Assembly (NCBI GenBank): GCA_964492775.1
Contig: CAZBLH010000008.1
Span: forward strand, 452-64,451
Direction of reading: 5' to 3'
Length of the DNA stretch: 64,000 nucleotides
Source of the DNA: an uncultured Eubacteriales bacterium
GTDB taxonomy: Bacteria; Actinomycetota; Coriobacteriia; Anaerosomatales; PHET01
Part shown: piece after piece, positions 47,996 to 64,000 of the stretch
Position numbering within the stretch: the stretch's first letter is position 1
Layout of the letters: each line of letters starts with the position of its first letter
Program-made: the position numbers and the translations under genes
Notes under the pieces: generated by a model
Database searches by the model: none
Told to the model about the DNA's origin: nothing
What the model saw: only the letters and a program-made list of their open reading frames with translations

Positions 47996-49747
47996 CTATC
48001 GATGGCGCGGCAGCGACAGAATGAATGACGAACCTGCCCCTGGCTCAGACGAGACGGTCACCTTGCCGCCGTGTCGCTCCGCCGCATGCTTGACAAGGGC
48101 AAGCCCAAGTCCCGTGCCTCCGACAACTCGATCTCGCCCTTGATCCACCCGATAGAACCGCTCGAAGATGCGTTCAAGATGTTCAGGAGCAATGCCACGC
48201 CCTGTGTCACGCACCTCGACATTCACCTCATCTGGCCCCGCGTCCACAACCAGTTGAACTGATCCCGCGTCGGTGTAGCTCAGCGCGTTCACGACGAGAT
48301 TGTCGAGCGCCACTGCAAGGTCAGTGGGGTCAGCCGCGACGAACACGTCTTCGTCGTTCACGGCAGAGAAGTCAGTCACGAGATCGAGGCCCTTGCCAAC
48401 CGCCGCGCTTCGGTGGCCGGCGATCACGTTGCGGACAGCGGTTCTCACATCAGCTATCGAATCGGGCGCGGGCAGCGCCTCGAGACGAGACAGATCGAGG
48501 AGGTCGCCTACCAGCTGATCGATGCGGTTCACCTCACCGAGAATCTGCGACGTGAACATGGCTGCCCCCGTCATGTCACCGTCTGCGGTCGCCATCTGCG
48601 CCGATTCGGCAAGCAGCTTGACGGCCGCCACCGGCGTCTTGAGCTCATGACTGGCGTTGGAGACGAACTCCCTGCGAACCTTGTCAAGCCGGCTCCGGTC
48701 CGTCACGTCGCTGATGAGTACCAGCGAACGACCGACGGGGCCAGTTGACTGGAGCCTGACGACACTGACCCGGAACACGCGGCCGAGAGGGTCAGGTGGA
48801 AGTTCGGTTTCACCCGACGACACATCAGAGACTTGAGACTCTATCGCGGCTCGCAGTGAGGCCGGCAGAGGTAGGCTTGCAAGGGTGCGTCCCGCTGTCA
48901 TCGCCGTGCGGCTGTCGGCCAGCCTGACTGCGGCGCTGTTCATGAGTGAGACCGAGTCTCCTTCGACCAAGAGCACCGCGTCGGTTATCCCGTCGAAAGC
49001 GGTCTGAAGAGTCAGCCGTTCGGCATCGAGGGCCTCGATCCTCGATCTCATCTGATCTCGCAATCCTGTCAGCGAGTCAGCCAGAACCTGGAGGTCGGAC
49101 GGCGCCTTGGGAACATGCACGGCAAGGTCGCCGGCTGCCATCTGCTTGGCGGTGTCGGCCAACTGCTGAACCGGTTGCGCTGCCGACCGGCTCGAACGCC
49201 ACGCGATCAATACCGTGAGTCCCAGCGCAAGACCGAGCATGAGTAGACCGAAACGCCTCAGAGCCGCCGCGATGCGTCGGACATCTTCGAGTGACTGCGC
49301 TACTCGAATAGCGACGCGTTGCCCGTGCAGGGAGCCGGGAACCGCGACGTAGAGCTGGTCGTACCCCTCCGTGGCGGACAACCGCTGATCGACACCGGTC
49401 TGGCCTTCCAGCGCCGAACGCACTTCAGGTCTGTCGGCATGGTTCTCCATCTTGGCGGGATCGAACTCGGAATCGGCGAGCACGCGGCCGTCGGCGGCAA
49501 TGATGGTCAGCCGAAGATCGGTTCGAGCGACAAGTTGCCGTGCGATGGTCTGGGCCGGCTGATCGGATTCCTGCACAAGCAGCACGGCGGATTGTGCGAC
49601 CGCCTTCAGATTGCGCACCTGCTGTTGTGTCACCGCATGGGTCAACGGACCATACAGCGAGTAGAGCCAAGCGCCAGCAAGCACGACCGCGACCAAGACG
49701 TAACCGACCACGATCCGCGAGAAGGTGGACTTGAACGGTGAGCCCAT
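47996..49747 (-). CDS. sensor histidine kinase (PhoR/SenX3-like; TM-HAMP-PAS-HisKA-HATPase)
   Basis: ATG at 49747, 2 nt after the regulator's stop. H-box SHELKTPVAAV and G-boxes DTGRGI, GGTGLGLALV. It neighbours pstSCAB. Confidence 0.85.
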   Translation of the reverse strand: MGSPFKSTFSRIVVGYVLVAVVLAGAWLYSLYGPLTHAVTQQQVRNLKAVAQSAVLLVQESDQPAQTIARQLVARTDLRLTIIAADGRVLADSEFDPAKMENHADRPEVRSALEGQTGVDQRLSATEGYDQLYVAVPGSLHGQRVAIRVAQSLEDVRRIAAALRRFGLLMLGLALGLTVLIAWRSSRSAAQPVQQLADTAKQMAAGDLAVHVPKAPSDLQVLADSLTGLRDQMRSRIEALDAERLTLQTAFDGITDAVLLVEGDSVSLMNSAAVRLADSRTAMTAGRTLASLPLPASLRAAIESQVSDVSSGETELPPDPLGRVFRVSVVRLQSTGPVGRSLVLISDVTDRSRLDKVRREFVSNASHELKTPVAAVKLLAESAQMATADGDMTGAAMFTSQILGEVNRIDQLVGDLLDLSRLEALPAPDSIADVRTAVRNVIAGHRSAAVGKGLDLVTDFSAVNDEDVFVAADPTDLAVALDNLVVNALSYTDAGSVQLVVDAGPDEVNVEVRDTGRGIAPEHLERIFERFYRVDQGRDRVVGGTGLGLALVKHAAERHGGKVTVSSEPGAGSSFILSLPRHR

Positions 49748-49749
49748 CG

Positions 49750-50454
49750 CTACTGAGCCTCGGTCTTCTCGATGACCTCGAATCGGTATCCCATACCGTG
49801 GACGGTGTGTATGTAGGTGTACGCGGATGGGCCTTCGACGGCCTGCCGCAGCCGACGAATGTGAACGTCGATCGTGCGCGACGACGTCATGTGCCCGTAG
49901 CCCCAGACCTCCTCGGCGAGCATTTGCCTGGTGCACAGACTGCCCTCATGCCGAGCGAGTGTCAGCAGAAGCTGGAACTCCTTCAGGCGCAGTGCGACGG
50001 CTTGTCCCGCAACGGACACCTTGTAGCTCTTCGGCTCGAGCACGAGATCGCCGACTTCGATCGTCACGTCGGCCGCGAGGGTCTCTCGCTGTCGCACTCT
50101 CCTGAGATTCGCCCGCACCCGTGCAAGCAGCTCCTCCATCGAGAAAGGCTTCGTGATGTAGTCGTCAGCGCCCGCGTCGAGGCCCTTCACCTTGTCGGCC
50201 GCTTGGTCGAGCGCGGTGACCATGATGATGGCGACTTCCTTGTCGGACTCACGCAGCCGCTCAGCCGTCTGGTAGCCGTCGAGCCCCGGCATCATGAGAT
50301 CCAGCAAGATGAGGTCCGGCGGCTGCACCTTGACCGCCGCGAGGGCCTCGTTACCGTCGGCTGCCATTGCAACATCGAACCCGGCCCGCTTCAGCGCGTA
50401 GCCCATTGTCTGGCGAATGATGGGGTCGTCTTCGACTATGAGAATGGACGACAT
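49750..50454 (-). CDS. OmpR/PhoB-family response regulator (PhoP/RegX3-like)
   Basis: The ATG at 50454 follows GGGAG. ILIVEDDP, LILLDLMMPGLDG, and a C-terminal winged helix ending TVHGMGYRF. Confidence 0.88.
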   Translation of the reverse strand: MSSILIVEDDPIIRQTMGYALKRAGFDVAMAADGNEALAAVKVQPPDLILLDLMMPGLDGYQTAERLRESDKEVAIIMVTALDQAADKVKGLDAGADDYITKPFSMEELLARVRANLRRVRQRETLAADVTIEVGDLVLEPKSYKVSVAGQAVALRLKEFQLLLTLARHEGSLCTRQMLAEEVWGYGHMTSSRTIDVHIRRLRQAVEGPSAYTYIHTVHGMGYRFEVIEKTEAQ

Positions 50455-50519
50455 CGAGAACTCCCAACCGCGTAGGGATGCGCTCATTCTAGGAGCGCTC
50501 AGCCGAGTGCGGTATCCAT

Positions 50520-50556
50520 TTCACAATCGTTTTACAAATGCCTTGCCGAGTTTACA
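50520..50556 (+). promoter_or_regulatory. putative Pho-box-like direct repeats (TTCACA-N5-TTTACA ... TTTACA) upstream of pstS
   Basis: TTCACA at 50520 and TTTACA at 50531 are spaced 11 bp apart. A third TTTACA lies at 50551 (20-bp spacing). The region is the divergent spacer between the regulator and pstS. Confidence 0.3.
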
Positions 50557-50657
50557 TCGCTGCAACCACCCGCACGTACTCCCCTGCCTAGCATGACCTC
50601 GACGACGCCGAAGGTGCGTCGCAGGCGCAACGACATCGCTCATGAAGGGGAGATGAC

Positions 50658-51524
50658 GTGAAGGCACTCAAGCTGGGAGTGATTGCGGCGCTCGCAATTG
50701 CTGCAATTGCGTTGGCAGGATGCGGTAGCTCCGACGGTACGTCGGCCGACAGCGGGACCGACAGCGTTACGGGCTCGCTCACGGTTCAGGGCTCGGACAC
50801 TATGGTGAACCTCGCCCAAGCGTGGGCCGAGGCCTATCAGACAGCAGAGCCCGGCGTAAGCATCTCCGTCACGGGCGGCGGCTCTGGAACCGGTATTGCA
50901 TCGCTGATCAATGGCACGGTCGACTTCGCAAACGCTTCTCGGGAGATGAAGTCCGAGGAGATCGAACAGGTGAAGGCAGTCGGCGTAAGTCCGGTCGAGA
51001 CCGAAGTCGCCAAGGACGGCATCGTCGTTCTCGTGAACCCGGCCAACACAGTCGATGACCTGACGGTTGAGCAGCTCGGCAGGATCTATCGGGGCGAGAT
51101 CCTCAACTGGAAGGAACTCGGCGGCGCGGACGCTGCTATCGTCCTGCTGGGGCGGGACACGTCCTCGGGAACGTACGAGTACTTCAAGGAAGAGGTCGTC
51201 GGCAAGGACTCTGAGTACGCGAAGTCCATGAAGAACCTCCAGTCGAGCCAGGCAATCGTCGACGAGGTCGGCAAGAACGCCAACGCGATCGGCTACGTCG
51301 GGATCGGTTATGAGAACGACGCGACCAAGCCCGTGAGAGTAGAGGGCGTGGCTGCATCGATCGACACCGTGCTGGATGGCACCTATCCGCTCAGCCGGGG
51401 CCTGTACATGTACAGCAGCGGCGAGCCGGAAGGCGCCAGGAAGGCCTATCTCGACTGGATCATCAGCGCCGAGGGACAGAAGGTCGTCGCCGACCAGGGC
51501 TTCGTGCCGCTGCACAAGCAGTAG
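50658..51524 (+). CDS. pstS: phosphate ABC transporter substrate-binding lipoprotein
   Basis: GTG start after GGGGAG. Lipobox IALAGCGS; GSDTMVNLAQAW..GGGSGTG is the PstS family motif. Confidence 0.9.
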   Translation: MKALKLGVIAALAIAAIALAGCGSSDGTSADSGTDSVTGSLTVQGSDTMVNLAQAWAEAYQTAEPGVSISVTGGGSGTGIASLINGTVDFANASREMKSEEIEQVKAVGVSPVETEVAKDGIVVLVNPANTVDDLTVEQLGRIYRGEILNWKELGGADAAIVLLGRDTSSGTYEYFKEEVVGKDSEYAKSMKNLQSSQAIVDEVGKNANAIGYVGIGYENDATKPVRVEGVAASIDTVLDGTYPLSRGLYMYSSGEPEGARKAYLDWIISAEGQKVVADQGFVPLHKQ

Positions 51525-51542
51525 CGGCACCACGTCGGACAC

Positions 51543-52472
51543 ATGAGACAACGACCTATCGTACATAGTGCGTCGCGACGCAGCCGCCTGGGATTGTCCC
51601 GGGCGGCTGACGCTCTCGTCAGACGTCTGATCGCCCTTTTCGGACTGGTGGCGATACTCATCCTCGCGGGCATCTTCGTGTTCCTCGCCTTAAACTCGAT
51701 CAAGGCCATCCGCGAGGTTGGTCTGGTCTCCATGCTGACTGGCGCGGATTGGTACCCGACGTCGGAACCGGCACGGTTCGGCTTCTTGCCATCCGAGGTT
51801 GGCTCGTTATGGGTGACCTTCGTAGCGTTACTGCTGTCCGTACCAGTCGGCATAGGCGCGGCAATCTACCTTTCCGAGTTCATGTCGGGGCGCCTCAAGG
51901 AGCTCGCCAAGGCCGTCGTCGAGTTCATGGCCGCCATACCCTCCGTCGTGTTAGGTCTGCTCGGAATCGCATTCGTTGTGCCGATGGTGCGCGACACTTT
52001 CGGCCTCTCGAGCGGACTCACCGCCTTCTCGGCGGGCTTGGTGGTTGGAGTGCTCTGCCTGCCCACGATCATCTCCATCAGCGAAGACGCCTTGCACGCC
52101 GTGCCTTCGTCTCTGCGCCAAGGCTCTCTCGCCCTGGGCAACACCCGCTGGCAGACCACCCGCAAGGTTGTTGTGCCGGCTGCAGGGTCTGGCATATTCG
52201 CGGCAACGATGCTCGGTCTGGGCCGGGCGATCGGCGAGACCATGGTCGTCCTGATGCTTGCAGGCAACTCCGGGCTCATCGTCCGAACGCCGTTCGAAGC
52301 GGCGCGCACCCTGACCGGCACCATCGCAGGAGAGATGGCGGAGGTTGTCCGTGGTGGACTCCACTTCTCAGTGCTCTTCGCCATGGCGCTCGTGCTGTTT
52401 GCCATCACGTTCGTCGTCAACCTTGCGGCCGACTCCGTGCTCGAGCGACAGCGCCGCCGGTGGCGCAGATGA
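51543..52472 (+). CDS. pstC: phosphate ABC transporter permease
   Basis: 309-aa polytopic protein with the EAA-like loop SLALGNTRWQT. Operon position fits pstC. Confidence 0.88.
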   Translation: MRQRPIVHSASRRSRLGLSRAADALVRRLIALFGLVAILILAGIFVFLALNSIKAIREVGLVSMLTGADWYPTSEPARFGFLPSEVGSLWVTFVALLLSVPVGIGAAIYLSEFMSGRLKELAKAVVEFMAAIPSVVLGLLGIAFVVPMVRDTFGLSSGLTAFSAGLVVGVLCLPTIISISEDALHAVPSSLRQGSLALGNTRWQTTRKVVVPAAGSGIFAATMLGLGRAIGETMVVLMLAGNSGLIVRTPFEAARTLTGTIAGEMAEVVRGGLHFSVLFAMALVLFAITFVVNLAADSVLERQRRRWRR

Positions 52473-53332
52473 CGAGCACCAGACGCATCCGTAACGCGAG
52501 GCGAGTCGAACAAGTGATGAGGCTCATCACTGGAGCGTGCCTCTTCGGAGTTGTCGGCCTGACGCTCCTTGTATTCGGTGCGATCCTGTTTCGAGGTCTC
52601 CCCTCAGTCTCAACGGAGTTCATCTTCGCCATGCCCAAGGAGAACATGACGGCTGGCGGGATATGGCCCGCTATCGTCGGTACGTTCTGGCTGACGCTGG
52701 GCACCGCAGCCTTCGCCATTCCGATCGGGGTCTCCACCGGTGTCTACCTGGCCGAGTACTCGCGGAACGGGCGCTTGACGAGGATCATCCGACTGTCGAT
52801 TGCGAATATGGCGGGTGTACCTTCCATCGTCTACGGCCTGTTCGGCCTATCGGTCTTCGTCATGGTGATGAGGTTCAACCAGTCACTTCTGGCGGGCGCC
52901 CTTACTCTGGCCTGCCTCACGCTGCCGATAATCATCACGTCGACCGAGGAGTCGCTACGGCAGGTTCCGAGCGAACTTCGGCAGGCTTCCCTGGCGCTGG
53001 GCGCCACACGACTCAGAACGATTCTTCGCGTCGTTCTGCCCGCCGCCGGCCCCGGCATAGTCACCGGCGCTGTCCTGGGTCTTTCGCGTGCCGCCGGCGA
53101 GACGGCACCGATTCTTGTGACTGCCGCTGCCTTCTCGGCGCCCCTGCCGCGAACCCCATTCGATCGTGTCATGGCGCTGCCCTACCACCTCTACATCATG
53201 GCGACCCAAGCGGTTAAGCCGGCACCCCACGTCGTCTGGGGAACCGCCCTTGTGCTCGTAGCGGGCGTGACTGTTATCGGAGTGGCGGCGACGTCCTGGC
53301 GCTCCCGGCAAAGGAGAAGGATCAGATGGTGA
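52469..53332 (+). CDS. pstA: phosphate ABC transporter permease
   Basis: The ATG at 52469 overlaps the pstC stop (ATGA). [19 protein letters not shown] loop. The track ORF from 51749 is an over-extension. Confidence 0.88.
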
Positions 53333-54111
53333 GCCCCGGCACTGGTGTGTTCGACCTGCAGGACGTCTCGGTCGCTTACGGCAAAGAGACCGCCATCGCC
53401 GGAGTGTCGATGCACATTCCGAGTCGCTCGGTCACCGCGCTCATCGGCCCATCAGGCTGCGGCAAGTCCACGTTGCTGCGCTGCCTGAATCGGATGAACG
53501 ATGAGATCGGCAACGTCACTGTGGGCGGAGACATTCGTCTGGACGGCAAGGACATCAACGGTCGCGAGGTCGACGCGGTGGAGCTGCGCACGCGAGTCGG
53601 AATGGTGTTTCAGAGGGCGAACCCGTTCCCCATGTCGATCTATGACAACGTCGTCTACGGCCCCAAGACGCTGGGCGTCAGGAAGAAGTCCGACCTCGAC
53701 GACATCGTCGAGAGCGCGCTCACCGATGCGGCACTGTGGGCTGAGGTCAAAGGCTCGCTCAAGAAGCACGCCTTCGAGCTCTCCGGTGGCCAGCAGCAGA
53801 GACTGTGCATTGCGCGCGCACTCGCGACGAGCCCCGAAGTGCTCTTGATGGACGAGCCGGCATCGGCGCTGGATCCGATCTCGACGCAGCAGATCGAAGA
53901 CACGATCGCCGAACTGAAGTCCCAGATCACCATCGTCATCGTCACCCACAACATGCAGCAGGCCGCCCGAATATCGGACCAGACGGCGTTCATGCTTCGC
54001 GAGTCTGTGGATCGTCCGTCTGCGCTGATCGAAGTCTCCTACACGCATCAGATGTTCACGAATCCGACCGACAAGCGCACCGAGGCTTACATCACCGGCC
54101 GTTTTGGCTAG
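53326..54111 (+). CDS. pstB: phosphate ABC transporter ATP-binding protein
   Basis: Walker [10 protein letters not shown], signature LSGGQQQRL, Walker B LLMDEP, and the C-terminal YITGRFG typical of PstB. Confidence 0.95.
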
Positions 54112-54201
54112 GTACTCCACCTTGCGACGCCCGCGTCCGCAGCGCGCTGTGCGACGCGACGATAGAGATGCCTCCGACCCACGTCGCACAAGACCCCGTT
54201 C

Positions 54202-54640
54202 TCAGCTACTGACCAACCCAAAGAACCGCTCAAAGAACTCCGTGAGCGCGGCCAACACGCGCCGCTTCTTCTCGCCATGTCCACCATCCGGCGTGAATCG
54301 CGACACCGGAGGCAGCACCTCGGTGATAGCACTGCCCGTGGTCTGCATCACACCATCACGGAAAGCCATGTCGATATCGGCGCGTGTAGCGTCCGGGTGT
54401 AGGTTCTCAGCTTCAACGATAGCGTTCAGCTCAGCATCACAGCGTTCCCTGATGAAAGCGTCCCACTCGGCGTCGACTTCGCCACTGGGAGACACGCTGT
54501 CGACAAACGCCTCGATCAGGTCCTTCTTGCTTCGGAGCGTGGGGCTAGCGTCGACTGCACGCGAGATTGAGGCGCGAAGCTCACCATCCTCGCCGTCACC
54601 ACGGGTCCTTCGCCATTTCTCGACGAGCATCAGGATCGAG
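54202..54640 (-). pseudogene. hsdR: C-terminal remnant (about 145 codons) of Type I restriction enzyme HsdR (EcoR124-type C-terminal domain)
   Basis: The translation ..SPTLRSKKDLIEAFVDSV..VDAEWDAFIRERCDAELNAIVEAENLHPDATRADIDMAFRDGVMQTTGSAITEVLPPVSRF..GEKKRRVLAALTEFFERFFG matches HsdR C-termini. No helicase or nuclease part is present upstream. Confidence 0.75.
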
Positions 54641-55129
54641 CGGCGGGACCGGGATGCTGATCTTCTCCAGGGACCTAGCGGATACATCGATGACCTTCGT
54701 GCCGGTAGCGTACTTCTTCTTCTGATTGAAGAAGTCCGGTGTCTGAAACCAATATGCGATGTACCTCGGGTCCTGCTTGTGCTTGAAGACGGTGGCGTGA
54801 CCACCGGTGACAATAGTGTCTGCACCAAGCCAGGCGACGGCCTTACCCACGTCATTCAAGTTCTCGCTGGTGTTGGTGATGATCACGTCACCCGGAGCGA
54901 CTTGGGCCAAGCGTGCGGCAGTCTCAGGGGCAACGAATGAACGGGTCACCTCAGTCCACGTGCCGTAGAAGGTGTAGATCTGGCCGTAGTGGATGGCACC
55001 GACACCCGACTCGGTGAAGTCGGACTTGGGCATACCATTGCCTCGCACCAGTTCGCCGAGCTCGCCCATCAGTCGGCGAGGAACCCCTTGAGGGCAGAGC
55101 TTTCGGAGTAGGTCGTCGATTCTGCTCAC
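54596..55129 (-). pseudogene. hsdS: truncated Type I specificity subunit HsdS (single target-recognition domain, ends just after ..ISIPVPPL)
   Basis: 177 aa versus the usual length of about 400. It has the N-terminal conserved region plus one TRD. The frame leaves HsdS-like sequence at about 54638 and stops 13 codons later. The GTG start overlaps the mrr stop (GTGA). Confidence 0.7.
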
Positions 55130-56043
55130 TCGAAGAAATCCTCGTCTACCTCGACGATGTTGATCGTCTGCTTCACCTGGACACCGACGCCGTAGCGAAT
55201 CATCAAGCCGGTGAGTCTGGTGCCGTCGATGAGGATGATGCGGGTATGTGCCTGCTCGGCATACTCAGTGGCACCCGATGAGAAGCGACCCGTGGTGATG
55301 AAGACGCCGGTGGAAGCCTTGCCGCTCAGTGCCCCCACGAACCGCTGGATGTCGGGACGACCCACAGGGTTGTCGCTCGCGTACCGCTTGGCTTGGATGT
55401 AGAGACGATCCAGACCCAGCGCGTCGCGGTCGATGATGCCGTCAATCCCGCCGTCACCGGATGCCTGGGTGACCACCGCTCGGCCGTCGGCGCCTCCGTA
55501 GCCCATGCCCACGAGCAGCTTGACCACAGCGTTCTCAAAGAACGTGGGGTCTTGCTCCTGCAGGCGGGAGAGCAGGTCGGTCGCTACATCGGCGTGGACT
55601 CGACTTATGCCCTGCGCAATCTGCTCGTGTGGATCGAGCTGATCTGCGCCCGTCGCCTCTGCACCAACTGGCTGCTTCGGCTCGTCGGTGGTCTTTTTCG
55701 TCCACCACTCATCGCCCGGGACCGCGAGTTGCCTGAAGTCGGCCTCGGTCAGACCGCCTGGATAATCCCGCAGGACTTCGCGGCCCTTGTCGGTAATCGC
55801 GTAGTGGGCCCGCTTCGGCCTGTTCAGTGCCTGGATCCGGGTCAGGTACGACACAGCCCAACCAATGCGGCTGTCAGTGAGCGGGTCACCGGTCGACGGG
55901 ATGGTGAGCGCACGCTGCTCGGGAGTGAACTCGTACGTGTCTGCCAGACCCCTGAGGATCTCGCGTCGGGTGAGTGTCGCACCGTCCTGCATGAACGCCA
56001 GCACCGGTATCGCGAACTCGTTCCAAGCAGGCAGCGTCGTCAC
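55126..56043 (-). CDS. mrr: Mrr-family Type IV restriction endonuclease (Mrr_N winged helix + Mrr catalytic domain)
   Basis: The N-terminus ..[22 protein letters not shown] and the catalytic core [17 protein letters not shown] (D..QxK) match Mrr. The GTG start overlaps the hsdM stop (GTGA). Confidence 0.85.
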
Positions 56044-57611
56044 GGCTGGCTCCCCTCCAAGTCGGCCACGATCGCATCTATCTGAGTCCGAAGTTCGCTC
56101 TGCCTTGCCACGATCCGGGCGATCTCGGCGTTGAGCGCAATGATGTCGACGGGTTCGCGAGTGTCCTCCTGCTCGACGTACGAGGACACGGCGAGGTTGT
56201 ATTCGTTCTCGGCAATCTCGGAGTTGGGAACCAGTCGAGCGAAGTGCTCGGCGTCAACGCGAGCGGTGAAGGCGTCGAGGATCTTGTCTCGGTTCGCCTC
56301 GGTGAGCTTGTTCTTGTTGCCGCCCCGGACGAACTCGGCTGATGCGTCGATGAACAGCGTCGCATTGTCTGTCTTCGACTTCTTGAGCACGATGATGCAG
56401 GTGGCGATCGTGGTGCCGAAGAACAGGTCGGGTGGCAGCTGGATGACGGTGTCGACGTAGTTGTTGTCAATGAGGTACTTGCGGATCTTTCGCTCGGCTC
56501 CCCCGCGGTAGAGCACGCCGGGGAACTCGACGATGGCGGCCGTGCCGTCGACAGCAAGCCAGCTCAAGATATGCATGGTGAAAGCGAGGTCGGCCTTCGA
56601 CTTCGGTGCGAGCACACCCGCAGGCGCGAACCGCGGGTCGTTGATCAGGAGCGGGTTCGCGTCGCCGTCCCACTTGATGGAGTAGGGCGGGTTCGACACG
56701 ATCGCCTCGAATGGCTCGTCATCCCAGTGCGCCGGGTCGATTAGCGTGTCGCCGTGCGCGAGGTCGAACTGCTCGTAGTTCACGTCGTGCAGGAACATGT
56801 TGATCCTGGCGAGGTTGTAGGTGGTCAGGTTGATCTCCTGGCCGAAGAAGCCCTGACGCACGTTCTCTTTGCCCAGCACCTTGGCGAACTGCAGCAGCAG
56901 CGAGCCCGAGCCGCACGCCGGGTCGTAGACCTTGTTGACCTCGGTCTTGCCCACCACCGTGATCTGGGCGAGGAGCTCGCTCACCTCTTGGGGCGTGTAG
57001 TACTCGCCCCCCGACTTGCCTGCGCTCGACGCATACATCTGCATCAGATACTCGTAGGCGTCACCGAATGCGTCGATGGTGTGGTCATCGAAACGGCCCA
57101 AGTCGAGGTCGCCAATGGCGTCCAGTAGCTTGACGAGCTTCTCATTGCGCTTGGCGACAGTGGCTCCGAGCTTGGCGCTGTTCACGTCGAGGTCATCGAA
57201 CAGGCCCTTGAGGTCGTCTTCGCTATCAGCGCCAACAGCCGAGCCTTCCACGTTGCGGAAAACACGCTCGAGCGTCTCATTCAGATTCGGATCATGTGGA
57301 GCCTGCGCTCTGACGTTGCAGAACAGTTCACTCGGAAGGATGTAGAACCCCTTCTCGGCGACTGTTTCCGCGCGTCCGAACTCGGCTTCCTGATCCGAAA
57401 GCCTCGCGTAGTCGAAATCGACACTCCCCGCAGCCCGCTCCTGCTCATTCAGATACGCTGTCAGGTTCTCCGAAATGAAGCGGTAGAAGAGCATCCCAAG
57501 CACGTAGCTCTTGAAGTCCCAGCCATCCACGGACCCGCGCAAGTCATTCGCAATCCGCCAGATGGTCTTGTGCAGCTCCGCCCGCTGAGCTTCCTTGGTG
57601 TCTGGCACCAT
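56040..57611 (-). CDS. hsdM: Type I restriction-modification DNA methyltransferase subunit
   Basis: ATG at 57611. HsdM_N ([36 protein letters not shown]), the AdoMet motif [10 protein letters not shown] and the catalytic NPPY (SNPPYS). Confidence 0.92.
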
Positions 57612-58087
57612 CCCGAGAGACTCCCCCTCAAGTCGACGGAACAAACTGCTTCATACTCGCACAATCGTCCATAGCCGAGGCTACATTAGCGGTAGCAGCG
57701 CGGCGCCTTCCGAAAGCGCGAACACAAGGCATGCGAGTCCTAGTGACGTTGCGACAAGCTGAAGCCACCGCTCGTGACCGCTCCAGTCCCACCACTCGGA
57801 TCCCCACCGCGCTCTCAGTAGCGTCGTGCCCATCACAAATGACCCAATCGTGATCCGCGTCCGCGGCTCAACTGCAATCGCGGCTGCTGACAATGCATTC
57901 TTGGCGAATCCCGAGCCTCAGCCCCTTCCGTGTGTGGCCGGAGGCTAGCAAGCGCCGCTGACATCGACCGGTTAGAAGACGGCAAGACCCGTGTCAGGCA
58001 CCGGCACAGTGGCCCCGCCCCTCGGGGCCGACGACACCGCACCCCACTTGGTGCCGTCACTGCAAATCCTAGCCTCGCCCAAGCAAG

Positions 58088-58114
58088 AAAGCCCCACCGC
58101 AAGGGCAGGGCTTT
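58088..58114 (-). terminator. hairpin immediately downstream of the tRNA-Phe 3' end (probable native tRNA terminator)
   Basis: AAAGCCC..13 nt..GGGCTTT. On the minus strand it is followed by CTTGCTT, a weak U-tract. Confidence 0.4.
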
Positions 58115-58126
58115 CGCTGATTCCTA

Positions 58127-58169
58127 TGGTGGCCAGAGACGGACTTGAACCGCCGACACGGGGATTTTC
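58127..58169 (-). tRNA. tRNA-Phe(GAA) 3' fragment only (anticodon to CCA); no 5' half - probable att junction
   Basis: The minus strand reads GAAAA TCCCC GTGTC GGCGG TTCAAGT CCGTC TCTGGCC A CCA. The anticodon arm and variable loop are identical to the canonical bacterial tRNA-Phe pattern (GAAAATCCCCGTGTC). The upstream sequence cannot pair with the acceptor or anticodon stems. Confidence 0.75.
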
Positions 58170-58285
58170 GGAGTGAGCATATCGCCTGTTGAGGACCCCG
58201 TGTCGGCATCCCTTGACATGCCCTTCACTTCACACGCCAGTTGAAGGGCCACGGGATGGCCAGTAGTCCAACCCGGAACCCTGCG

Positions 58286-58798
58286 CTAGATCCGCTTTCC
58301 GCCAGTACCGGGAAGTTCGAACCCTACTTTCCCACCGACGAACACGACTGCAAGGAGCAAGGCGCCTCCTACAGCCGCGCCCATGATGGAGTACATCTCC
58401 CTCACAAACTGCTTATTCTCCGTATCCTTCGCGTACTCCAGCTTGCCGGTATCCATAAGTAGATCGAGGATGTACTTCCTCTGCTCCCATGGCAGATCTT
58501 CGACCTCAAGCTGCCCTCTTAGGATCTCCCGTATCTCCCGAAACGCCTCGTGCACCTGCGCCATGCTCTGCTTGTTATCTGCATGAGCAGACTCGTGAGC
58601 CTTCTGCATCACGTTGATGGCCTCTAGCGCGAAGCTGGTGAACTCGGGAAGCTGCTCGACGATCTTTAGGGCGACTTCCTTGTCCACGTCGGGCAGCATG
58701 GCCGCGAACCGCGTGACGTTGTCCCTGGACAAGTTTCGCCAAGTGTCGATACCAAGGGCCTTCTTGATGTCGTCCTCGTTCGTGTACCTCAAGAGCAA
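58286..58798 (-). CDS. hypothetical helical protein with C-terminal transmembrane anchor
   Basis: 170-aa ORF. The C-terminus MGAAVGGALLLAVVFVGGKV is a single TM. TTG start; TTG at 58792 has better spacing from the GGGAGG. No family recognised. Confidence 0.5.
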   Translation of the reverse strand: MLLRYTNEDDIKKALGIDTWRNLSRDNVTRFAAMLPDVDKEVALKIVEQLPEFTSFALEAINVMQKAHESAHADNKQSMAQVHEAFREIREILRGQLEVEDLPWEQRKYILDLLMDTGKLEYAKDTENKQFVREMYSIMGAAVGGALLLAVVFVGGKVGFELPGTGGKRI

Positions 58799-58920
58799 CC
58801 TCCCATGATGTCGTCAGATCTACGATGCACAACGTGCGGACGCTCGCGTCTTGTGCTCGTCCATCAGGCGGCGTAGAGCGAAAGACGTTGGCCACCAGAA
58901 GGAAGGGCGGGACAGACCAT

Positions 58921-60771
58921 CTATGCTGTATCGCGATCCTCGTCTTGGACGGAACCGTCGGCCATGACGAACTCTTGGCCCATGTCGTTGCGCTCATAGA
59001 CGGCCGCGTCAGTCTGGCCGGCCATGTCGACCAAGTCGAACGGGACGCCCTCAAGCTCGGTACGCAGCTTGTTGACGATCATGTCGAGCCGACCCTCCGC
59101 GAAGTCCGTCAGCGCCGTGACCGGAAGCTCCTCCTGAGCAACCCACTCGGACAGGACGCTCGGCAGCAGATGCGATCGCTCGATGTCCTCGAAGCGCGTT
59201 CCGATGAAGTCGCGCATGTACTCGAGCGGGTTGCGGTTGCTGATCTTGAGGTTCGTCATCTGCGTGAGATACGCGATGTTGAGCAGACTGTTGGCCAGCC
59301 GGTCGTCATCAAGCTGCTTCTCGCAGAAGTCCAGCGGAAAGATGTGGTGCAGGTTCGGGTTGTCTGTCAGCTCGTAGTAGACCTCCGTGAGAACGGAGCG
59401 ATCAGGAATAGCCCAGTCCACCGGGTTCTGGTTGGCGTAGAGCGCAAGTACCGCACGCGAGAGACGTCCACGGTTGCTGTAGCTGATCCGGCGCAACTTC
59501 TCCTTGTCGATCAAGAAGCGGCCGAAGCCGAAGTCACCCTCCTCGCGAGTGCTCCTCAAACGCACGACGTGGTCCCTGAGATGGGACGTGTTGGTGAGCA
59601 GGTCGTCATTGTGGAAGCTGAAGTACCAGAAGTACCGCTTGAGAAGCGCATAGTCCGGTTCACGGTTTTCGTGCAGATAGGCCGCGACAGTCATGTAGAA
59701 GTAGCGGTTCGGGATGAGCGCCGGACCGGGAAGCCGAAGCTGGTTGTCGAAGAAGTCGAACGTCTTTCGGATGGCCTTGGAGCCCGCTTCCCACACTGCC
59801 TCGATGTGCTCGGTCTTGAGCGCGTTCAAGTAGCGGTCTGTGATGTTCTGGACGCCAGCTTCTGGAACGCTGTCTCGAACCAGCACTGCGAGGATCTGCA
59901 GGATCGTCATGTCGTCGACGGACGAAAACCTACTTCCGGCAACCTCCAGACCATGCCGGAAGTCCTCGAACAGCCCCCTCAGATAGAAGCCGGCGACTCC
60001 CGGCTCCTCGGGGCGAAACGTCTTCGCGACCACGATGTCAAACATGCTGAGAGGCTGACCGGCCTGGTTGATGCGCTCGAAGATCTGGCAGACCTCAGCG
60101 ACCTCGATCCCACGAAGCTCTATGAAGGAGAGCTTGTAGTTGTCGAACACCTGCTTGAAGCTCCGCAGCTGCACACGTGCAGGATCGTCGTAGTCTACGC
60201 GGCCCTTTTCGACGAGCCCCCGCTCGACGTCGCCGTAGCGATGAGCAATGTCCTCGAGCTTCACGATCAGCCCGTCGTCGTACCGCTTCTTCCGTCCCGT
60301 GTTCCGAAGCAGTTGGCCGTCACGGTCGTCGATCTCGTCCCAGAACAGGAAACGCTCCCGCCACGACGCGTCCTCGACTTCGTCGGCATCCTCGACAGTA
60401 AGGTCGACGAAGAGGTGCAAGTCCTTGTCCTTCTGTCCCTTGATGCTCCCGCCGTACATCGATGTGAGAAGAGCGGTCGTCCGCTGCTGGCCATCGAGGA
60501 GGTACTGGTAGTCTCCGTCGCTATGGCCATGCTCCAGCGGGTGACCGCCGATCTCGCGGTGGTTCTGGAGACGCGTTGGCGTACGCCACACGAGTATGCT
60601 GCCCAGCGGATAGAAGCTGTAGATGCTGTCCCAGAGGCGCTTGACCCGGTCGGGACCCCACACAACGTCGCGCTGGAAAGTCGGTATCTGATAGTGCCCA
60701 CGTTGCAGGCTCTCTAGGTACGTCGTTATGCCGTACGAGTCGGGCTTGATCCGGTCAACATGTGAGTCCAA
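58921..60771 (-). CDS. DUF262 + DUF1524 protein (GmrSD-like Type IV restriction/NTPase-nuclease family)
   Basis: The TTG start lies 6 nt after GGAGGAG. The N-terminal DUF262/ParB-like motifs are IPTFQRDVVW and LLDGQQRTTAL. The C-terminus has the His-Me-type HHIFP..NIAYLTQMTNLKISN. Confidence 0.8.
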   Translation of the reverse strand: MDSHVDRIKPDSYGITTYLESLQRGHYQIPTFQRDVVWGPDRVKRLWDSIYSFYPLGSILVWRTPTRLQNHREIGGHPLEHGHSDGDYQYLLDGQQRTTALLTSMYGGSIKGQKDKDLHLFVDLTVEDADEVEDASWRERFLFWDEIDDRDGQLLRNTGRKKRYDDGLIVKLEDIAHRYGDVERGLVEKGRVDYDDPARVQLRSFKQVFDNYKLSFIELRGIEVAEVCQIFERINQAGQPLSMFDIVVAKTFRPEEPGVAGFYLRGLFEDFRHGLEVAGSRFSSVDDMTILQILAVLVRDSVPEAGVQNITDRYLNALKTEHIEAVWEAGSKAIRKTFDFFDNQLRLPGPALIPNRYFYMTVAAYLHENREPDYALLKRYFWYFSFHNDDLLTNTSHLRDHVVRLRSTREEGDFGFGRFLIDKEKLRRISYSNRGRLSRAVLALYANQNPVDWAIPDRSVLTEVYYELTDNPNLHHIFPLDFCEKQLDDDRLANSLLNIAYLTQMTNLKISNRNPLEYMRDFIGTRFEDIERSHLLPSVLSEWVAQEELPVTALTDFAEGRLDMIVNKLRTELEGVPFDLVDMAGQTDAAVYERNDMGQEFVMADGSVQDEDRDTA

Positions 60772-60815
60772 CTAACGCTCCTCCGGTGTGGGGTACGAGA
60801 TCCGTGATCTGAGGC

Positions 60816-61280
60816 CTAGAGCGGATGCTCGATGATGATCGGGCCCTCGGGCACGAATGGCATTCCGTAGTCCTTGTCAGCCTTGTATCCGCGTAGATCA
60901 GCCGTCGATATGTGTGCGATCGGATGAAGCCCCTCGACTTCCCAGAAGACAGCCCACCAGCCCGATCCATCCTCCAGCGCAAGTCGTGACCTGAACTTTC
61001 GGCCATCCGGGTGCTTGCCGTCGACGCCTTCCACGTGCCGGACGTAGCGTCCTTGCCAGGACACAACCTTCTCAAGACTGCCCGCGTGAGACGCGTACAT
61101 GTAGACGTCCACAGGCATCCCCTCTCGCATCGTGTCCAGCGAGCGAAACACCTCCCAGGCGCGACTGCCGAAGGCCACTTTGCCTTTGGCTTCACAGACT
61201 CGCCGGCCTTCGAGCAGCGGGCCCTCAGGCACTGGGGCCAGCAAAGCGATATTCGGATGTGACTGCGCCTCGGTGGACAT
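60816..61280 (-). CDS. hypothetical protein, about 154 aa, no recognised family
   Basis: The ATG at 61280 follows GAGGGGAG. The track ORF starts at GTG 61301. It is conspicuously Trp-rich (SWQGRY, GWWAVFWEVEG). It lies 6-27 nt downstream of the DUF3825 gene. Confidence 0.55.
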   Translation of the reverse strand: MSTEAQSHPNIALLAPVPEGPLLEGRRVCEAKGKVAFGSRAWEVFRSLDTMREGMPVDVYMYASHAGSLEKVVSWQGRYVRHVEGVDGKHPDGRKFRSRLALEDGSGWWAVFWEVEGLHPIAHISTADLRGYKADKDYGMPFVPEGPIIIEHPL

Positions 61281-61307
61281 GCTGCTCCCCTCGGTCTTCA
61301 CGGCAGC

Positions 61308-62228
61308 CTAGACGGTGCCCTCCTTGAAGCCGCCGAGCCACTCACTGTTGGGTCTGGTTAGCAGTCGAGCGTGTCTGTAGGCCCAGTCGGGATACAGAAC
61401 GGTTGCGGCGCGATACCACTCCCCACAGCGCTCAAGAGTCAGTGCCAGATCGGGAACGTCGGCGCTTCGCAGGTACAGGGGCAGCAAAAGCTGGATCTTG
61501 CCCCTGTGAAACTGGGGCACCGCCATACGGTAGCTGCGCTTCGCCAAGCGAACGCTGTGCTTCATGGCGCCCTCTAGTGCGTTTCTCAGAGCGAGCGGGA
61601 CAACAATGGCGGACTCGCCCCCGTCGCCCGCCACATCTTCGTCAGTGTCGCTCCCCGGCGAGGCACTCTCGCCGGCCTCGTCTTCGATGTCTGGGGACGC
61701 AGTAATGTCGAGCGGCTTCCCGTCGGGTCCCAACTGGCCGCCCAGTTCGACAGGGAAGCGGTTCAGGTTTTCACGGATGATGTGGTCGAGGTTCAGTTGG
61801 ACTTGCAGATGCGGATCGAATACGAGGTCGGCCGGGTTATCCCAGTACGTCGGCAGCTGAGGAAGCTCCATGAAAGAGGTCAGGATCTTCTCGCCTGCAC
61901 GCAAGAAGTTCTTGAGATACCACTTCTTGTTGTCCGGTCCGACGGGCTTCGTCGGGTCATAGTGATTAAAGACCTTGAAGACCCCGAAGATCTCCTCCTG
62001 GTCGGGAGTCATGAGGCCCGTATTGAAGCAGGCAAGCGTATCGGTCTCGGCCACCCTACCCTGCTCGTGGAGACGAAGGAACGTGTACCGGACGTAGCTA
62101 TCGAGGATCGGCAAAGGCGAGTGATCGGGTACGGACTTAAACGTCCACCGCTCGGGTTCGGCCAGGTTTGCCAGCTGCTCGAGACGGCCATCCCATGCGG
62201 TCACCGCCGCGTAGTCGAATATCCTCAC
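61308..62228 (-). CDS. DUF3825 domain protein
   Basis: LANLAEPERWTF..PILDSYVRYTFLRLHEQGRV..CFNTGLMT and the C-terminal YPDWAYRHARLL resemble DUF3825, recalled from memory. The GTG at 62228 follows GGGGGAG and overlaps the integrase stop as GTGA. Confidence 0.6.
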   Translation of the reverse strand: MRIFDYAAVTAWDGRLEQLANLAEPERWTFKSVPDHSPLPILDSYVRYTFLRLHEQGRVAETDTLACFNTGLMTPDQEEIFGVFKVFNHYDPTKPVGPDNKKWYLKNFLRAGEKILTSFMELPQLPTYWDNPADLVFDPHLQVQLNLDHIIRENLNRFPVELGGQLGPDGKPLDITASPDIEDEAGESASPGSDTDEDVAGDGGESAIVVPLALRNALEGAMKHSVRLAKRSYRMAVPQFHRGKIQLLLPLYLRSADVPDLALTLERCGEWYRAATVLYPDWAYRHARLLTRPNSEWLGGFKEGTV

Positions 62229-63409
62229 GCTACTCCCCCATCTAGACGACTTGCCCCTGCACGGCATGATACCTGTCGAGGCTGACAAGTGGTGCTATCG
62301 AGCGTGAAGGCCGTCCCTATCCAAGCAGCTGCGGCGACCTCCTGGGACAACCACTTATCGAGGTCAGCAACCGCCTGATCCCCTTCATCTGGAAAGAGCC
62401 ATGAGTACGTGTTCAACGTCACGCTCGCATTCGCATGGCCCATCGTCGTCTGCACGTATTTCACTGACCGGCCCAGCATTATCTGAGTGGAAGCGTACTG
62501 ATGGCGAAGATCGTGTAGCCGCAAGTGAGGAAGGCCGGCTCGCTCCCGTGTCTTGACGTGCACTCTCGCGTAGTAGTTCGGAGGGTCGACAGGTCGCCCT
62601 TCTGGCGTAGGGAATAGCAGGTTGAGCTCGTTCTCCGGCCTGACTGTGAGAAACGCGATCAGTGCTTCGACGGTCTGCCTGGGCAGCGGGATCCGGCGAT
62701 AGGCGGCATCGCTCTTGAGATCGACGAGCTTCCGCTTCACCAACTGCCGGCGGATGTGGACCACGCCGGCATCGAGATCCAGGTCTGCCAGAGTCACTCC
62801 CCACGCTTCGGCGCGTCTGGTTCCGGTGGTCAACAAGAACAAGTAGAACGGACGCCAGTAGTCGGGGGCACATGCGAGCAGCCGGTCGACCTCTTGTCTT
62901 GTGAGGGGGCGCCACACGCGCTTCCTGAGCTTGGGCAGCGGGAGCTTCGTGGCCCCCGTCGGTAGCGAGTCGATGTAGCCCCAGTCGACGGCCACGCGAA
63001 GCATCGACTTCATGATGGTGATGGTCTTCCTAGTGGTCGACGGTGAGTAGCGAGCCGACAGTGAGGCGATGGCCGCGTCGATCTCGCGTCTCGTGATGGC
63101 CGTTACGAACATCGGCCCGAAGAACGGCTTGAGACGTCGGATCGCCTTGTCATAGTCAGTCTTCGTCGCCGGCCGCACAGAAGTCAGTCCGGCCAACCAC
63201 CGCTTCGCAAGGGCATCGAAGGTGATCTGCTCCCTCGGCTTCAGCGGTTCGCCCAAGAGCATGCGACGCTTCATCTCCTGCTCCGCGTGCTCGGCGTCCT
63301 TTCGTCGGTCGAAAGAGCCGACGTACTTCTGCCGACGGGCGCTCTTGTCGTTGACGTACACGTGAAAGTGGACGTTGCCGCGCTTGTCCACGTACCTCTT
63401 GATGGCCAT
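62225..63409 (-). CDS. int: tyrosine-type site-specific integrase
   Basis: The ATG at 63409 follows AAGGAG. Motifs are TGTRRAEAWG (Arg I), HDLRHQYAS (H-x-x-R) and GHANASVTLNTYSWL (His/Tyr). The track ORF to 63460 would run through the upstream terminator. Confidence 0.9.
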   Translation of the reverse strand: MAIKRYVDKRGNVHFHVYVNDKSARRQKYVGSFDRRKDAEHAEQEMKRRMLLGEPLKPREQITFDALAKRWLAGLTSVRPATKTDYDKAIRRLKPFFGPMFVTAITRREIDAAIASLSARYSPSTTRKTITIMKSMLRVAVDWGYIDSLPTGATKLPLPKLRKRVWRPLTRQEVDRLLACAPDYWRPFYLFLLTTGTRRAEAWGVTLADLDLDAGVVHIRRQLVKRKLVDLKSDAAYRRIPLPRQTVEALIAFLTVRPENELNLLFPTPEGRPVDPPNYYARVHVKTRERAGLPHLRLHDLRHQYASTQIMLGRSVKYVQTTMGHANASVTLNTYSWLFPDEGDQAVADLDKWLSQEVAAAAWIGTAFTLDSTTCQPRQVSCRAGASRLDGGVA

Positions 63410-63430
63410 GTTTCTCCTTCTCAAATGAAG

Positions 63431-63451
63431 AAGCCCGCTCATGGCGGGCTT
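63431..63451 (-). terminator. GC-rich hairpin AAGCCCGC-TCATG-GCGGGCTT between the partial upstream ORF and the integrase
   Basis: Perfect 8-bp stem with T-rich flanks on both strands (CTTTTC on the plus strand, CTTCTTCATTT on the minus strand). Confidence 0.6.
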
Positions 63452-63474
63452 TTCGGTCACAGTTCATTGGGCGG

Positions 63475-64000
63475 CTACGCTCGTGGCCCACGTGCCTTTC
63501 GGCCACGGCCCAGACGAGGCGAGTCGGACGCCAACTCTATTTGGGGTAGGGGTACCTCAGTTCTGCGTAGCTTTCGGATGGTCTCTAGGTCTATTAGGGG
63601 TTCAGTGACGTTGTCTATCGGTGTGATAGTGATGGTCAAGCCAACAGGAGTGAGGGCGGTTCGGTACGCTTCGACCTCGGTGATGAGGTCCTCGATGGCC
63701 GGCTGTCTCGACCACATCTCCAGCGGCGACAGCGCCTCGTCCTTGTAGGCCGCAACGTGCAGCAGGTGCACGAGTCGTGTGACGACGTTCTCGAGATCTG
63801 CGGTCTTCTTGGAGTTTACGATCACAGTCGCACGGTAGGGGCCGCCGGATGGCAAGCGGCGGACGGCCTCAACGGTCTCTTGGTCGACTTCGCGTGCGAC
63901 CTCCTGCCACTGGTCGAGCAGTTCATCCACGTAGGTGTCGATGTCACGACCGGTAGCCTCACCAGAGGGAGCTATCAGCGGCCTTGTCCCAATGGGAGCC
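63475..64000 (-). CDS. hypothetical protein, C-terminal part (frame open to window end)
   Basis: Own translation shows the frame of track ORF 63475..63930 stays open upstream to position 64000 (..APIGTRPLIAPSGEATGRDIDTYVDELLDQW..). No family recognised. Confidence 0.45.
   Translation of the reverse strand, partial: APIGTRPLIAPSGEATGRDIDTYVDELLDQWQEVAREVDQETVEAVRRLPSGGPYRATVIVNSKKTADLENVVTRLVHLLHVAAYKDEALSPLEMWSRQPAIEDLITEVEAYRTALTPVGLTITITPIDNVTEPLIDLETIRKLRRTEVPLPQIELASDSPRLGRGRKARGPRA

Follow-up and report, generated by a model that had tools for sequence, protein, structure and literature searches.

A recurrent p154 and GmrSD-like gene pair as a probable two-gene Type IV restriction module in a mosaic, probable tRNA-Phe island

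Five co-directional minus-strand genes lie towards the end of the 64,000-nucleotide (nt) stretch of contig CAZBLH010000008.1 analysed here (the window; all coordinates are window positions). They encode a tyrosine integrase, a DUF3825 protein, a protein of 154 amino acids (aa) designated p154, a nuclease resembling the GmrSD restriction enzymes (GmrSD-like), and a helical protein of 170 aa with a C-terminal transmembrane anchor, designated TA170. In this study, we found by comparing gene neighbourhoods that the p154 and GmrSD-like genes appear to be the only conserved multi-gene partnership among the five. The region is most likely a mosaic tRNA-Phe island, in which the integrase is accompanied by three independent accessory units. 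One of these units, p154 with the GmrSD-like gene, would be a two-gene Type IV restriction module with a separately encoded reader. We put the probability of this reading at about two in three.

Recurrence of the p154 and GmrSD-like gene pair

The p154 loci screened with the window proteins comprised 23 genomic loci, 4 looked-up contigs and 3 plasmid regions. The p154 gene was followed by a gene for a GmrSD_N protein of 612-622 aa in L002, L076 and L079/L080. In these loci p154 always came first, and the gaps were 44-60 nt. The aa identities of p154 and the GmrSD-like protein were 72% and 75% in L002, and 70% and 87.5% in L076. The flanks of the pair were unrelated, with DarT/NADAR in L076 and an Eco57I methyltransferase, a PLD-SNF2 protein, a MORC-like ATPase and Metallophos in L079. 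More distant p154 genes adjoined other GmrSD_N proteins in L004 and L007.

A blastn comparison showed that positions 61264 to 58949 aligned with L002, L076 and L079/L080 as one continuous block (72-79%), which contained only p154, the spacer and the nuclease gene. A separate block from 62246 to 61295, which contained only DUF3825, aligned with L025 (76%). Since the DUF3825 block and the p154 and GmrSD-like block meet inside a 27-nt spacer, the region is a mosaic and the p154 and GmrSD-like pair is a mobile unit within it. An earlier note on this DNA had raised a conserved partner for the GmrSD-like gene, and both the recurrence of the pair and the blastn block identify p154 as that partner. 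An 1808-bp contig was the longest on record for both P0002 (p154, 80% identity) and P0122 (DUF3825, 84%). This suggests that the window arrangement exists in one near relative.

The GmrSD-like protein is placed in the GmrSD/BrxU family by its N-terminal domain, according to profile matches. PF03235, the DUF262 (ParB-like NTPase) domain, matched residues 18-251 at 2.2e-29, and two DUF262 motifs were visible, FQR in IPTFQRDVVW and DGQQR in LLDGQQRTTAL. BrxU (7p9k) was matched at 1e-9. Among the PADLOC models, PDC-M55C gave the best match (2.4e-42), and HEC-05 was also matched (6e-27). The protein had been described as a DUF262 and DUF1524 nuclease. The DUF262 part was upheld, whereas the match of the C-terminus to PF07510 (GmrSD_C) was sub-threshold, with E 0.02 and 15.2 bits against a cut-off of 23. 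By eye, the C-terminal motif HHIFP...NSLLNIAYLTQMTNLKISN fits the H...N...N pattern of a His-Me finger. Plasmid matches to the protein were all at most 27% identical. PDC-M55 is a PADLOC candidate system of which the GmrSD-like protein matched component C. Its components A and B had no match at E<=0.01 among the proteins here, and literature searches found no published description of it.

The earlier note had put forward all five genes as a candidate defence module. That they form one conserved module was unsupported, and the set was absent elsewhere in the p154, DUF3825 and TA170 loci examined. Thus the five genes did not co-occur in other loci, whereas the p154 and GmrSD-like pair did. It could still be argued that DUF3825, p154, the GmrSD-like protein and TA170 are one multi-component defence system delivered by the integrase, comprising, for example, a sensor, a regulator, a nuclease and a membrane effector. 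The genes are tightly packed in one direction with no predicted terminator between them, and the integrase and DUF3825 genes overlap by 4 nt. Furthermore, a related integrase, a CSD-DUF3825 protein and TA170 recur together in a sister island (L084/L085), along with a DUF262 nuclease that has an HNH-like partner. However, the p154 and GmrSD-like pair moves without the other genes, as the blastn blocks showed. In the 23 genomic loci, 4 contigs and 3 plasmid regions, which make about 30 loci with p154 besides the window, neither DUF3825 nor TA170 was found. Some 50 DUF3825 loci besides the window lacked p154, GmrSD and TA170, save L025 and L084, which had TA170 only. The nuclease module of L084 (NTase-like, DUF262, HNH) is a different one, lies on the other side of TA170 and has no p154. 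DUF3825, p154 and TA170 also had no significant match to a PADLOC model. The proposal of a single system is thus largely refuted by the neighbourhood data, and we regard it as very improbable.

Predicted fold and nuclease associations of p154

The p154 protein holds five Trp residues. Its family comprised 222 close homologues and, after clustering at 50%, 545 representatives. The protein had no match in Pfam, NCBIfam, PADLOC or PHROG, and it was absent from 50,697 phage records. Because p154 failed every named PUA-clan model (EVE, ASCH, YTH and SRA) at the thresholds tried, it represents an unnamed, divergent family.

A confident AlphaFold (AF2) model was built from the family alignment, with a pLDDT of 89.8 and a pTM of 0.85. 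Among the PDB matches listed by Foldseek, 50 of 50 were EVE, YTH, ASCH or YTH-like McrB N-terminal domains, with probabilities of up to 0.99. They included the EVE protein 2g2x (E 9e-3, probability 0.99), many m6A-bound YTH domains, the YTH-like N-terminal domain of Staphylothermus McrB, and ZmASCH. The model is predicted to belong to the PUA-like beta-barrel fold class, with a uniform hit list and weak scores. This fold class is backed by two independent lines that agree with it, namely the fusions and the operon position of p154. The invariant residues W75, W109, F112, W113, Y62, Y79 and H90 are candidates for an aromatic base pocket.

The p154 domain had a C-terminal HNH_2/HNH nuclease as its fusion partner in P0311, P0393 and P0455; in P0345 the fused nuclease is GIY-YIG and lies at the N-terminus. 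A reader fused to a nuclease is the layout of known modification-dependent restriction enzymes (Lutz et al. 2019, PMC6765204; Bell et al. 2020, PMC7641849). A class of p154 proteins of about 230-253 aa carried an N-terminal extension of about 85 aa (P0308, P0314, P0316, P0321, P0331, P0346, P0347, P0365, P0381 and P0403); in P0345 the N-terminal extension is the GIY-YIG nuclease. CsrA was considered as the identity of the extension and dropped. One member gave E 5e-4 (below the cut-off), and BLASTP of P0316 against an approximate E. coli CsrA sequence found nothing.

In Rhizobium mesosinicum (L018), the gene order was an SNF2-NOV_C nuclease, a DUF1156 methyltransferase, a DUF499-HEPN ATPase and p154. 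Related arrangements were found on Rhizobium and Bradyrhizobium plasmids (L082, L083). Bell et al. (2020) reported a stand-alone EVE protein in that slot of DUF1156/DUF499/SNF2 operons, and also noted rare EVE-GmrSD fusions (PMC7641849). Further neighbours of p154 were an EVE-NOV_C protein (L005), an HNH_repeat-NOV_C protein (L024) and a Type III-like restriction-modification (R-M) system (L020). In L022 (4384-10333), a p154 homologue lay two genes downstream of the Zorya type I genes ZorC (EH_Signature) and ZorD (SNF2-Mrr), after an unknown gene of 234 aa. This homologue may be an accessory reader for the Zorya system. It had been suggested that a partner of the nuclease could be a modified-base sensor, and p154 fits this role through its predicted PUA-like fold, its nuclease fusions and its occupation of the EVE slot in known operons.

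As the main alternative, p154 may be a regulator or immunity factor (antitoxin-like or an inhibitor) of adjacent toxic nucleases, or a small autonomous protein, of defence or housekeeping function, that simply accumulates in defence islands. GmrSD-family enzymes are generally known to function alone, many p154 genes had no adjacent nuclease, and the partners were very heterogeneous. Bell et al. also discuss a toxin-antitoxin-like logic for systems with a stand-alone EVE (PMC7641849). However, covalent fusions to HNH and GIY-YIG nucleases are expected of a specificity domain and not of an inhibitor. The order and spacing of p154 beside the GmrSD-like gene were fixed across four flanking contexts, and the predicted fold class is that of base readers. 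We therefore consider a regulatory or autonomous role unlikely.

The separate-reader module resembles two kinds of known enzymes and differs from both. The GmrSD-like protein is like the GmrSD/BrxU Type IV enzymes in its DUF262 domain and its FQR and DGQQR motifs, and by eye in a C-terminal HxxP...N...N His-Me motif, but its C-terminal domain falls short of the Pfam cut-off and its gene has a conserved, separately encoded and predicted PUA-like partner directly upstream. To our knowledge, the GmrSD and BrxU enzymes characterised so far are single polypeptides (or GmrS and GmrD halves) that work without a PUA reader. With the enzymes that combine a PUA reader and a nuclease (EVE-HNH, SRA-HNH and YTH/EVE-McrB; PMC7641849, PMC6765204), p154 shares the predicted fold class and the fusions to HNH_2 and GIY-YIG, and it takes the same operon slot as the stand-alone EVE of the DUF1156 methyltransferase/DUF499/SNF2-nuclease operons (PMC7641849). 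In the window, however, the predicted reader would act in trans to a GmrSD-type enzyme and is not fused to it.

DUF3825, TA170 and the probable tRNA-Phe island

DUF3825 had more than 905 homologues, with 60-68% identity across Gammaproteobacteria, Nitrospira, Coriobacteriia, Acidobacteria and Caulobacter, and its start was backed by the consensus N-terminus of 30 homologues. No p154, GmrSD or TA170 was found near DUF3825 in 44 metagenomic loci and L026. When all neighbours were clustered, no partner recurred except between near-identical copies of an element. The neighbours were varied and included PPK, GGDEF, RuBisCO, a UvrD-PD-(D/E)XK protein, a STAND ATPase, an N6/N4 methyltransferase and an OLD-like ATPase. 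In L058 (7995-9760), the start of a gene for an N6/N4 DNA methyltransferase lies 4 nt ahead of the DUF3825 stop, an overlap of the type seen between integrase and DUF3825 in the window. Linkage of DUF3825 to an integrase was considered and rejected, as integrase-like open reading frames (ORFs) were present in 4 of the 44 loci, 2-6 kb away and on the opposite strand.

Phage homologues of DUF3825 (about 27-30% identity) were found in moron positions. In Listeria phage A006 (L074 3959-4747), the homologue is gp21, the last co-directional gene of the AcrIIA1 locus; gp21 comes after AcrIIA1 and an HNH gene, with the lysin on one side and the integrase on the other. The homologue of Streptococcus prophage Javan385 (L075 3923-4894) comes after the lysin. 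These positions hint at a possible defence or counter-defence role. The AF2 model of DUF3825 was moderate (pLDDT 72.3), and Foldseek searches against PDB and BFVD gave nothing significant (best E 0.2-0.27, low probabilities). Literature searches found no papers for DUF3825 or PF12873, and an OST-HTH paper made no mention of DUF3825. Judging from its homologues and their neighbours, DUF3825 appears to be a solitary, highly conserved and horizontally mobile gene.

TA170 has a C-terminal hydrophobic segment, IMGAAVGGALLLAVVFVGG, which was conserved in the alignment of its homologues. There were 64 homologues, all from Actinobacteria wherever the source was named, and the gene occurred in nine viral contigs of IMG/VR and on five plasmids. 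TA170 had no match in Pfam, NCBIfam or PHROG, and weak PADLOC matches to JukA and PDC-S02 (14-15 bits) were treated as noise. In the three chromosomal loci (L027-L029), nine viral contigs and three plasmid regions examined, TA170 was solitary, often beside recombinases, and had no fixed partner. From its distribution, TA170 appears to be a tail-anchored membrane protein whose gene stands alone on actinobacterial phages, plasmids and islands.

The contigs with the closest TA170 relative form the sister island (L084 1112-10728, and L085). The order of its genes was an integrase (52% identity), an unknown 301-aa gene, CSD-CSD-DUF3825 (34%), TA170 (80%), an NTase-like gene (191 aa), a DUF262 gene (345 aa), an HNH-like gene (296 aa), two further genes and a tRNA-Phe 3' fragment. 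This fragment was identical to that of the window at 42 of 43 positions, and again no full tRNA was present. Thus the expectation that the genes of the cassette keep company was borne out in part, as the integrase, DUF3825, TA170 and a DUF262 nuclease recur in the sister island, but with a different nuclease module and without p154. These results suggest a tRNA-Phe island family with integrase, DUF3825 and TA170, and with swappable DUF262-type nuclease modules at varying positions. A shared backbone with variable restriction cargo fits better than a single machine, since L084 lacks p154 and has another nuclease module.

DUF3825 and TA170 might themselves be a functional pair, either as the island backbone or as a separate exclusion or abortive-infection pair, which was split here by insertion of p154 and the GmrSD-like gene. 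DUF3825 was directly followed by a TA170-family gene in L025 (8001-9475, 23-nt gap) and in L084/L085 (L084 3333-5122, 71-nt gap), and the p154 and GmrSD-like block of the window is bounded exactly by these two genes. The DUF3825 and TA170 identities were discordant, 82% and 37% in L025 versus 34% and 80% in L084, and this suggests repeated association and not one inherited block. However, TA170 occurred without DUF3825 in 15 other contexts (L027-L029, the nine viral contigs and the three plasmid regions), DUF3825 occurred without TA170 in about 45 loci, and all three co-occurrences may belong to one actinobacterial island family. A functional pair is in our judgement quite unlikely, and the adjacency may instead reflect a shared insertion spot or hotspot.

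The features of the proposed tRNA-Phe island and its flank are listed in Table 1. The coordinates and spacings that the earlier note gave for the five genes were confirmed from the ORF list and the sequence. As homologues were found for each of the five ORFs, all five are real genes. The integrase stop and the DUF3825 start share GTGA, with the GTG start on the integrase TGA. The DUF3825 stop is separated by 27 nt from the p154 ATG; an alternative GTG start of p154 at 61301 would leave 6 nt. The gap is 44 nt between p154 and the GmrSD-like gene and 122 nt between the latter and TA170.

Table 1. Features of the island and its flank (window positions)
Feature	Coordinates	Strand	Description
Integrase gene	63409..62225	minus	ATG start, preceded by GGAGAA ribosome-binding site; 394 aa
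DUF3825 gene	62228..61308	minus	GTG start; 306 aa; PF12873 7.5e-68
p154 gene	61280..60816	minus	ATG preceded by GAGGGGAG; 154 aa; predicted PUA-like reader
GmrSD-like gene	60771..58921	minus	616 aa; GmrSD/BrxU-like Type IV restriction enzyme (predicted)
TA170 gene	58798..58286	minus	170 aa; helical, C-terminal transmembrane anchor
tRNA-Phe(GAA) 3' fragment	58173..58127	minus	47 nt; anticodon, variable loop, T-arm, acceptor 3' strand and CCA; read from the sequence
Perfect 12-nt inverted repeat	58152-58163 (GCCGACACGGGG) and 58196-58207 (CCCCGTGTCGGC)		From fold and sequence
Terminator-like hairpin	58091..58106	minus	Just downstream of the tRNA-Phe fragment
Terminator-like hairpin	63431..63451	minus	Between the upstream 151-aa ORF and the integrase start
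151-aa ORF	63475-63930	minus	Upstream of the integrase; no family match
Decayed Type I R-M locus with Mrr insert	54202..57644	minus	Pfam and PADLOC; outside the island, beyond the tRNA-Phe fragment

The integrase matched PF00589 (Phage_integrase, 2.4e-18), Phage_int_M and SAM_3 in Pfam, and phrog_1 at 2e-67. The tRNA-Phe 3' fragment occurred once in the window, and ARAGORN called no complete tRNA at it. It is probably a displaced attachment-site copy that marks the island end. One arm of the inverted repeat is within the fragment and the other is in island DNA, so that they bracket the tRNA/island junction, the presumed crossover point. They would probably serve as core-type binding sites of the integrase. 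The hairpin beside the fragment is likely the native terminator of the tRNA. As a strong hairpin follows the 151-aa ORF, the island probably reaches past the window, and transcription of the integrase may start separately. Rfam searches of 57.5-64 kb gave only sub-threshold chance matches, with the Trp_leader match corresponding to the terminator hairpin. No direct repeats that span the island were found when the window was scanned for repeats.

The guanine-plus-cytosine (GC) content of the island was about 0.59-0.61, versus 0.65-0.70 over most of the window. GC falls from about 0.65-0.70 to 0.59-0.63 across the last 16 kb (48000-64000), the housekeeping pstCAB genes included. As this low-GC stretch holds both pstCAB and the island, the island borders cannot be drawn from low GC alone. 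In the decayed R-M locus, HsdM is intact, an intact mrr lies between hsdM and a truncated (half) hsdS, and only the C-terminal 217 aa of hsdR are left. HsdM could still methylate only if a functional S subunit is encoded elsewhere. A Pfam scan found no methyltransferase inside the island. Sequence reading and domain searches confirmed the tRNA-Phe 3' fragment and the decayed Type I R-M/Mrr locus as the flanks, and they support the proposed setting of a defence island and an integrative island. The region is like other tRNA-integrating islands with variable defence cargo in its tyrosine integrase, its displaced tRNA 3' fragment, its lower GC and its restriction cargo, and the sister island, at the same tRNA-Phe site, bears another DUF262 module. 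The region differs in that one end only is seen here, with the intact tRNA and the second att copy falling beyond the window; the 66,680-bp contig is less than 2.7 kb longer than the window.

Proposed mechanism and its meaning

We propose that a small integrative island has inserted into tRNA-Phe and that the region is its cargo end. The tyrosine integrase would lead three units that move independently, namely DUF3825, p154 with the GmrSD-like gene, and TA170. The PUA-like barrel of p154 would bind a flipped-out modified base of invading DNA in its aromatic pocket (candidate residues W75, W109, F112, W113, Y62 and Y79). Through a physical or functional interaction, p154 may then recruit, license or set the specificity of the adjacent DUF262 NTPase and His-Me-finger nuclease. 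The nuclease would cut the modified DNA, and host DNA without the modification would be spared. The module may in this way have an anti-phage effect.

Several points weigh against this reading. The fold match of p154 was weak in absolute terms (best E 9e-3, TM 0.40-0.48), and a PDB profile search with p154 found nothing relevant. By sequence, none of 31 p154 members had any Pfam match at E<=10 that would link the family to the PUA clan. A sequence link between p154 and EVE was likewise rejected, with hhalign giving 0.5% probability against an EVE-NOV_C protein and the same 31 members having no Pfam match. A recognisable nuclease beside p154 was missing in about half of the loci examined, and therefore p154 does not strictly need such a partner. 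Since GmrSD and BrxU relatives act as single proteins, the nuclease here may not need p154. For the putative DUF1524 half of the nuclease, the Pfam match stays under the cut-off, and the assignment comes from this weak match and the HHIFP...N...N motif. As for the island, DUF3825 followed by TA170 recurs in L025 and L084, and a DUF262 nuclease appears again in the sister island, so that some functional link among these genes is possible. An intact tRNA-Phe and a second tRNA 3' copy were absent within the window, and the island end with the intact tRNA-Phe is thus unseen.

A broader proposal, which we advance tentatively and at somewhat less than even odds, is that p154 founds an unnamed branch of PUA-like modified-base readers, for which no link by sequence to EVE, YTH, ASCH or SRA was found. 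In trans, such a reader would be a portable specificity subunit for several unrelated defence nucleases (GmrSD-type, DUF1156/DUF499/SNF2, NOV_C and perhaps Zorya), and in the HNH and GIY-YIG fusions it would act in cis. The base modification that it recognises may lie outside the range of the known readers.

The analysis also shows that tight packing behind an integrase is no evidence of a system, and that block-wise homology and neighbourhood checks can resolve such a cassette into independent parts. Modification-dependent restriction enzymes have given tools for mapping 5-methylcytosine (5mC), 5-hydroxymethylcytosine (5hmC) and N6-methyladenine (6mA). If p154 is a new modified-base reader, it would add a sensor family to these enzymes, and the natural HNH and GIY-YIG fusions P0311, P0393 and P0345 would be single-chain enzymes. 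It would also mean that GmrSD-type enzymes, which are usually thought to be self-sufficient, can take their specificity from a separate subunit.

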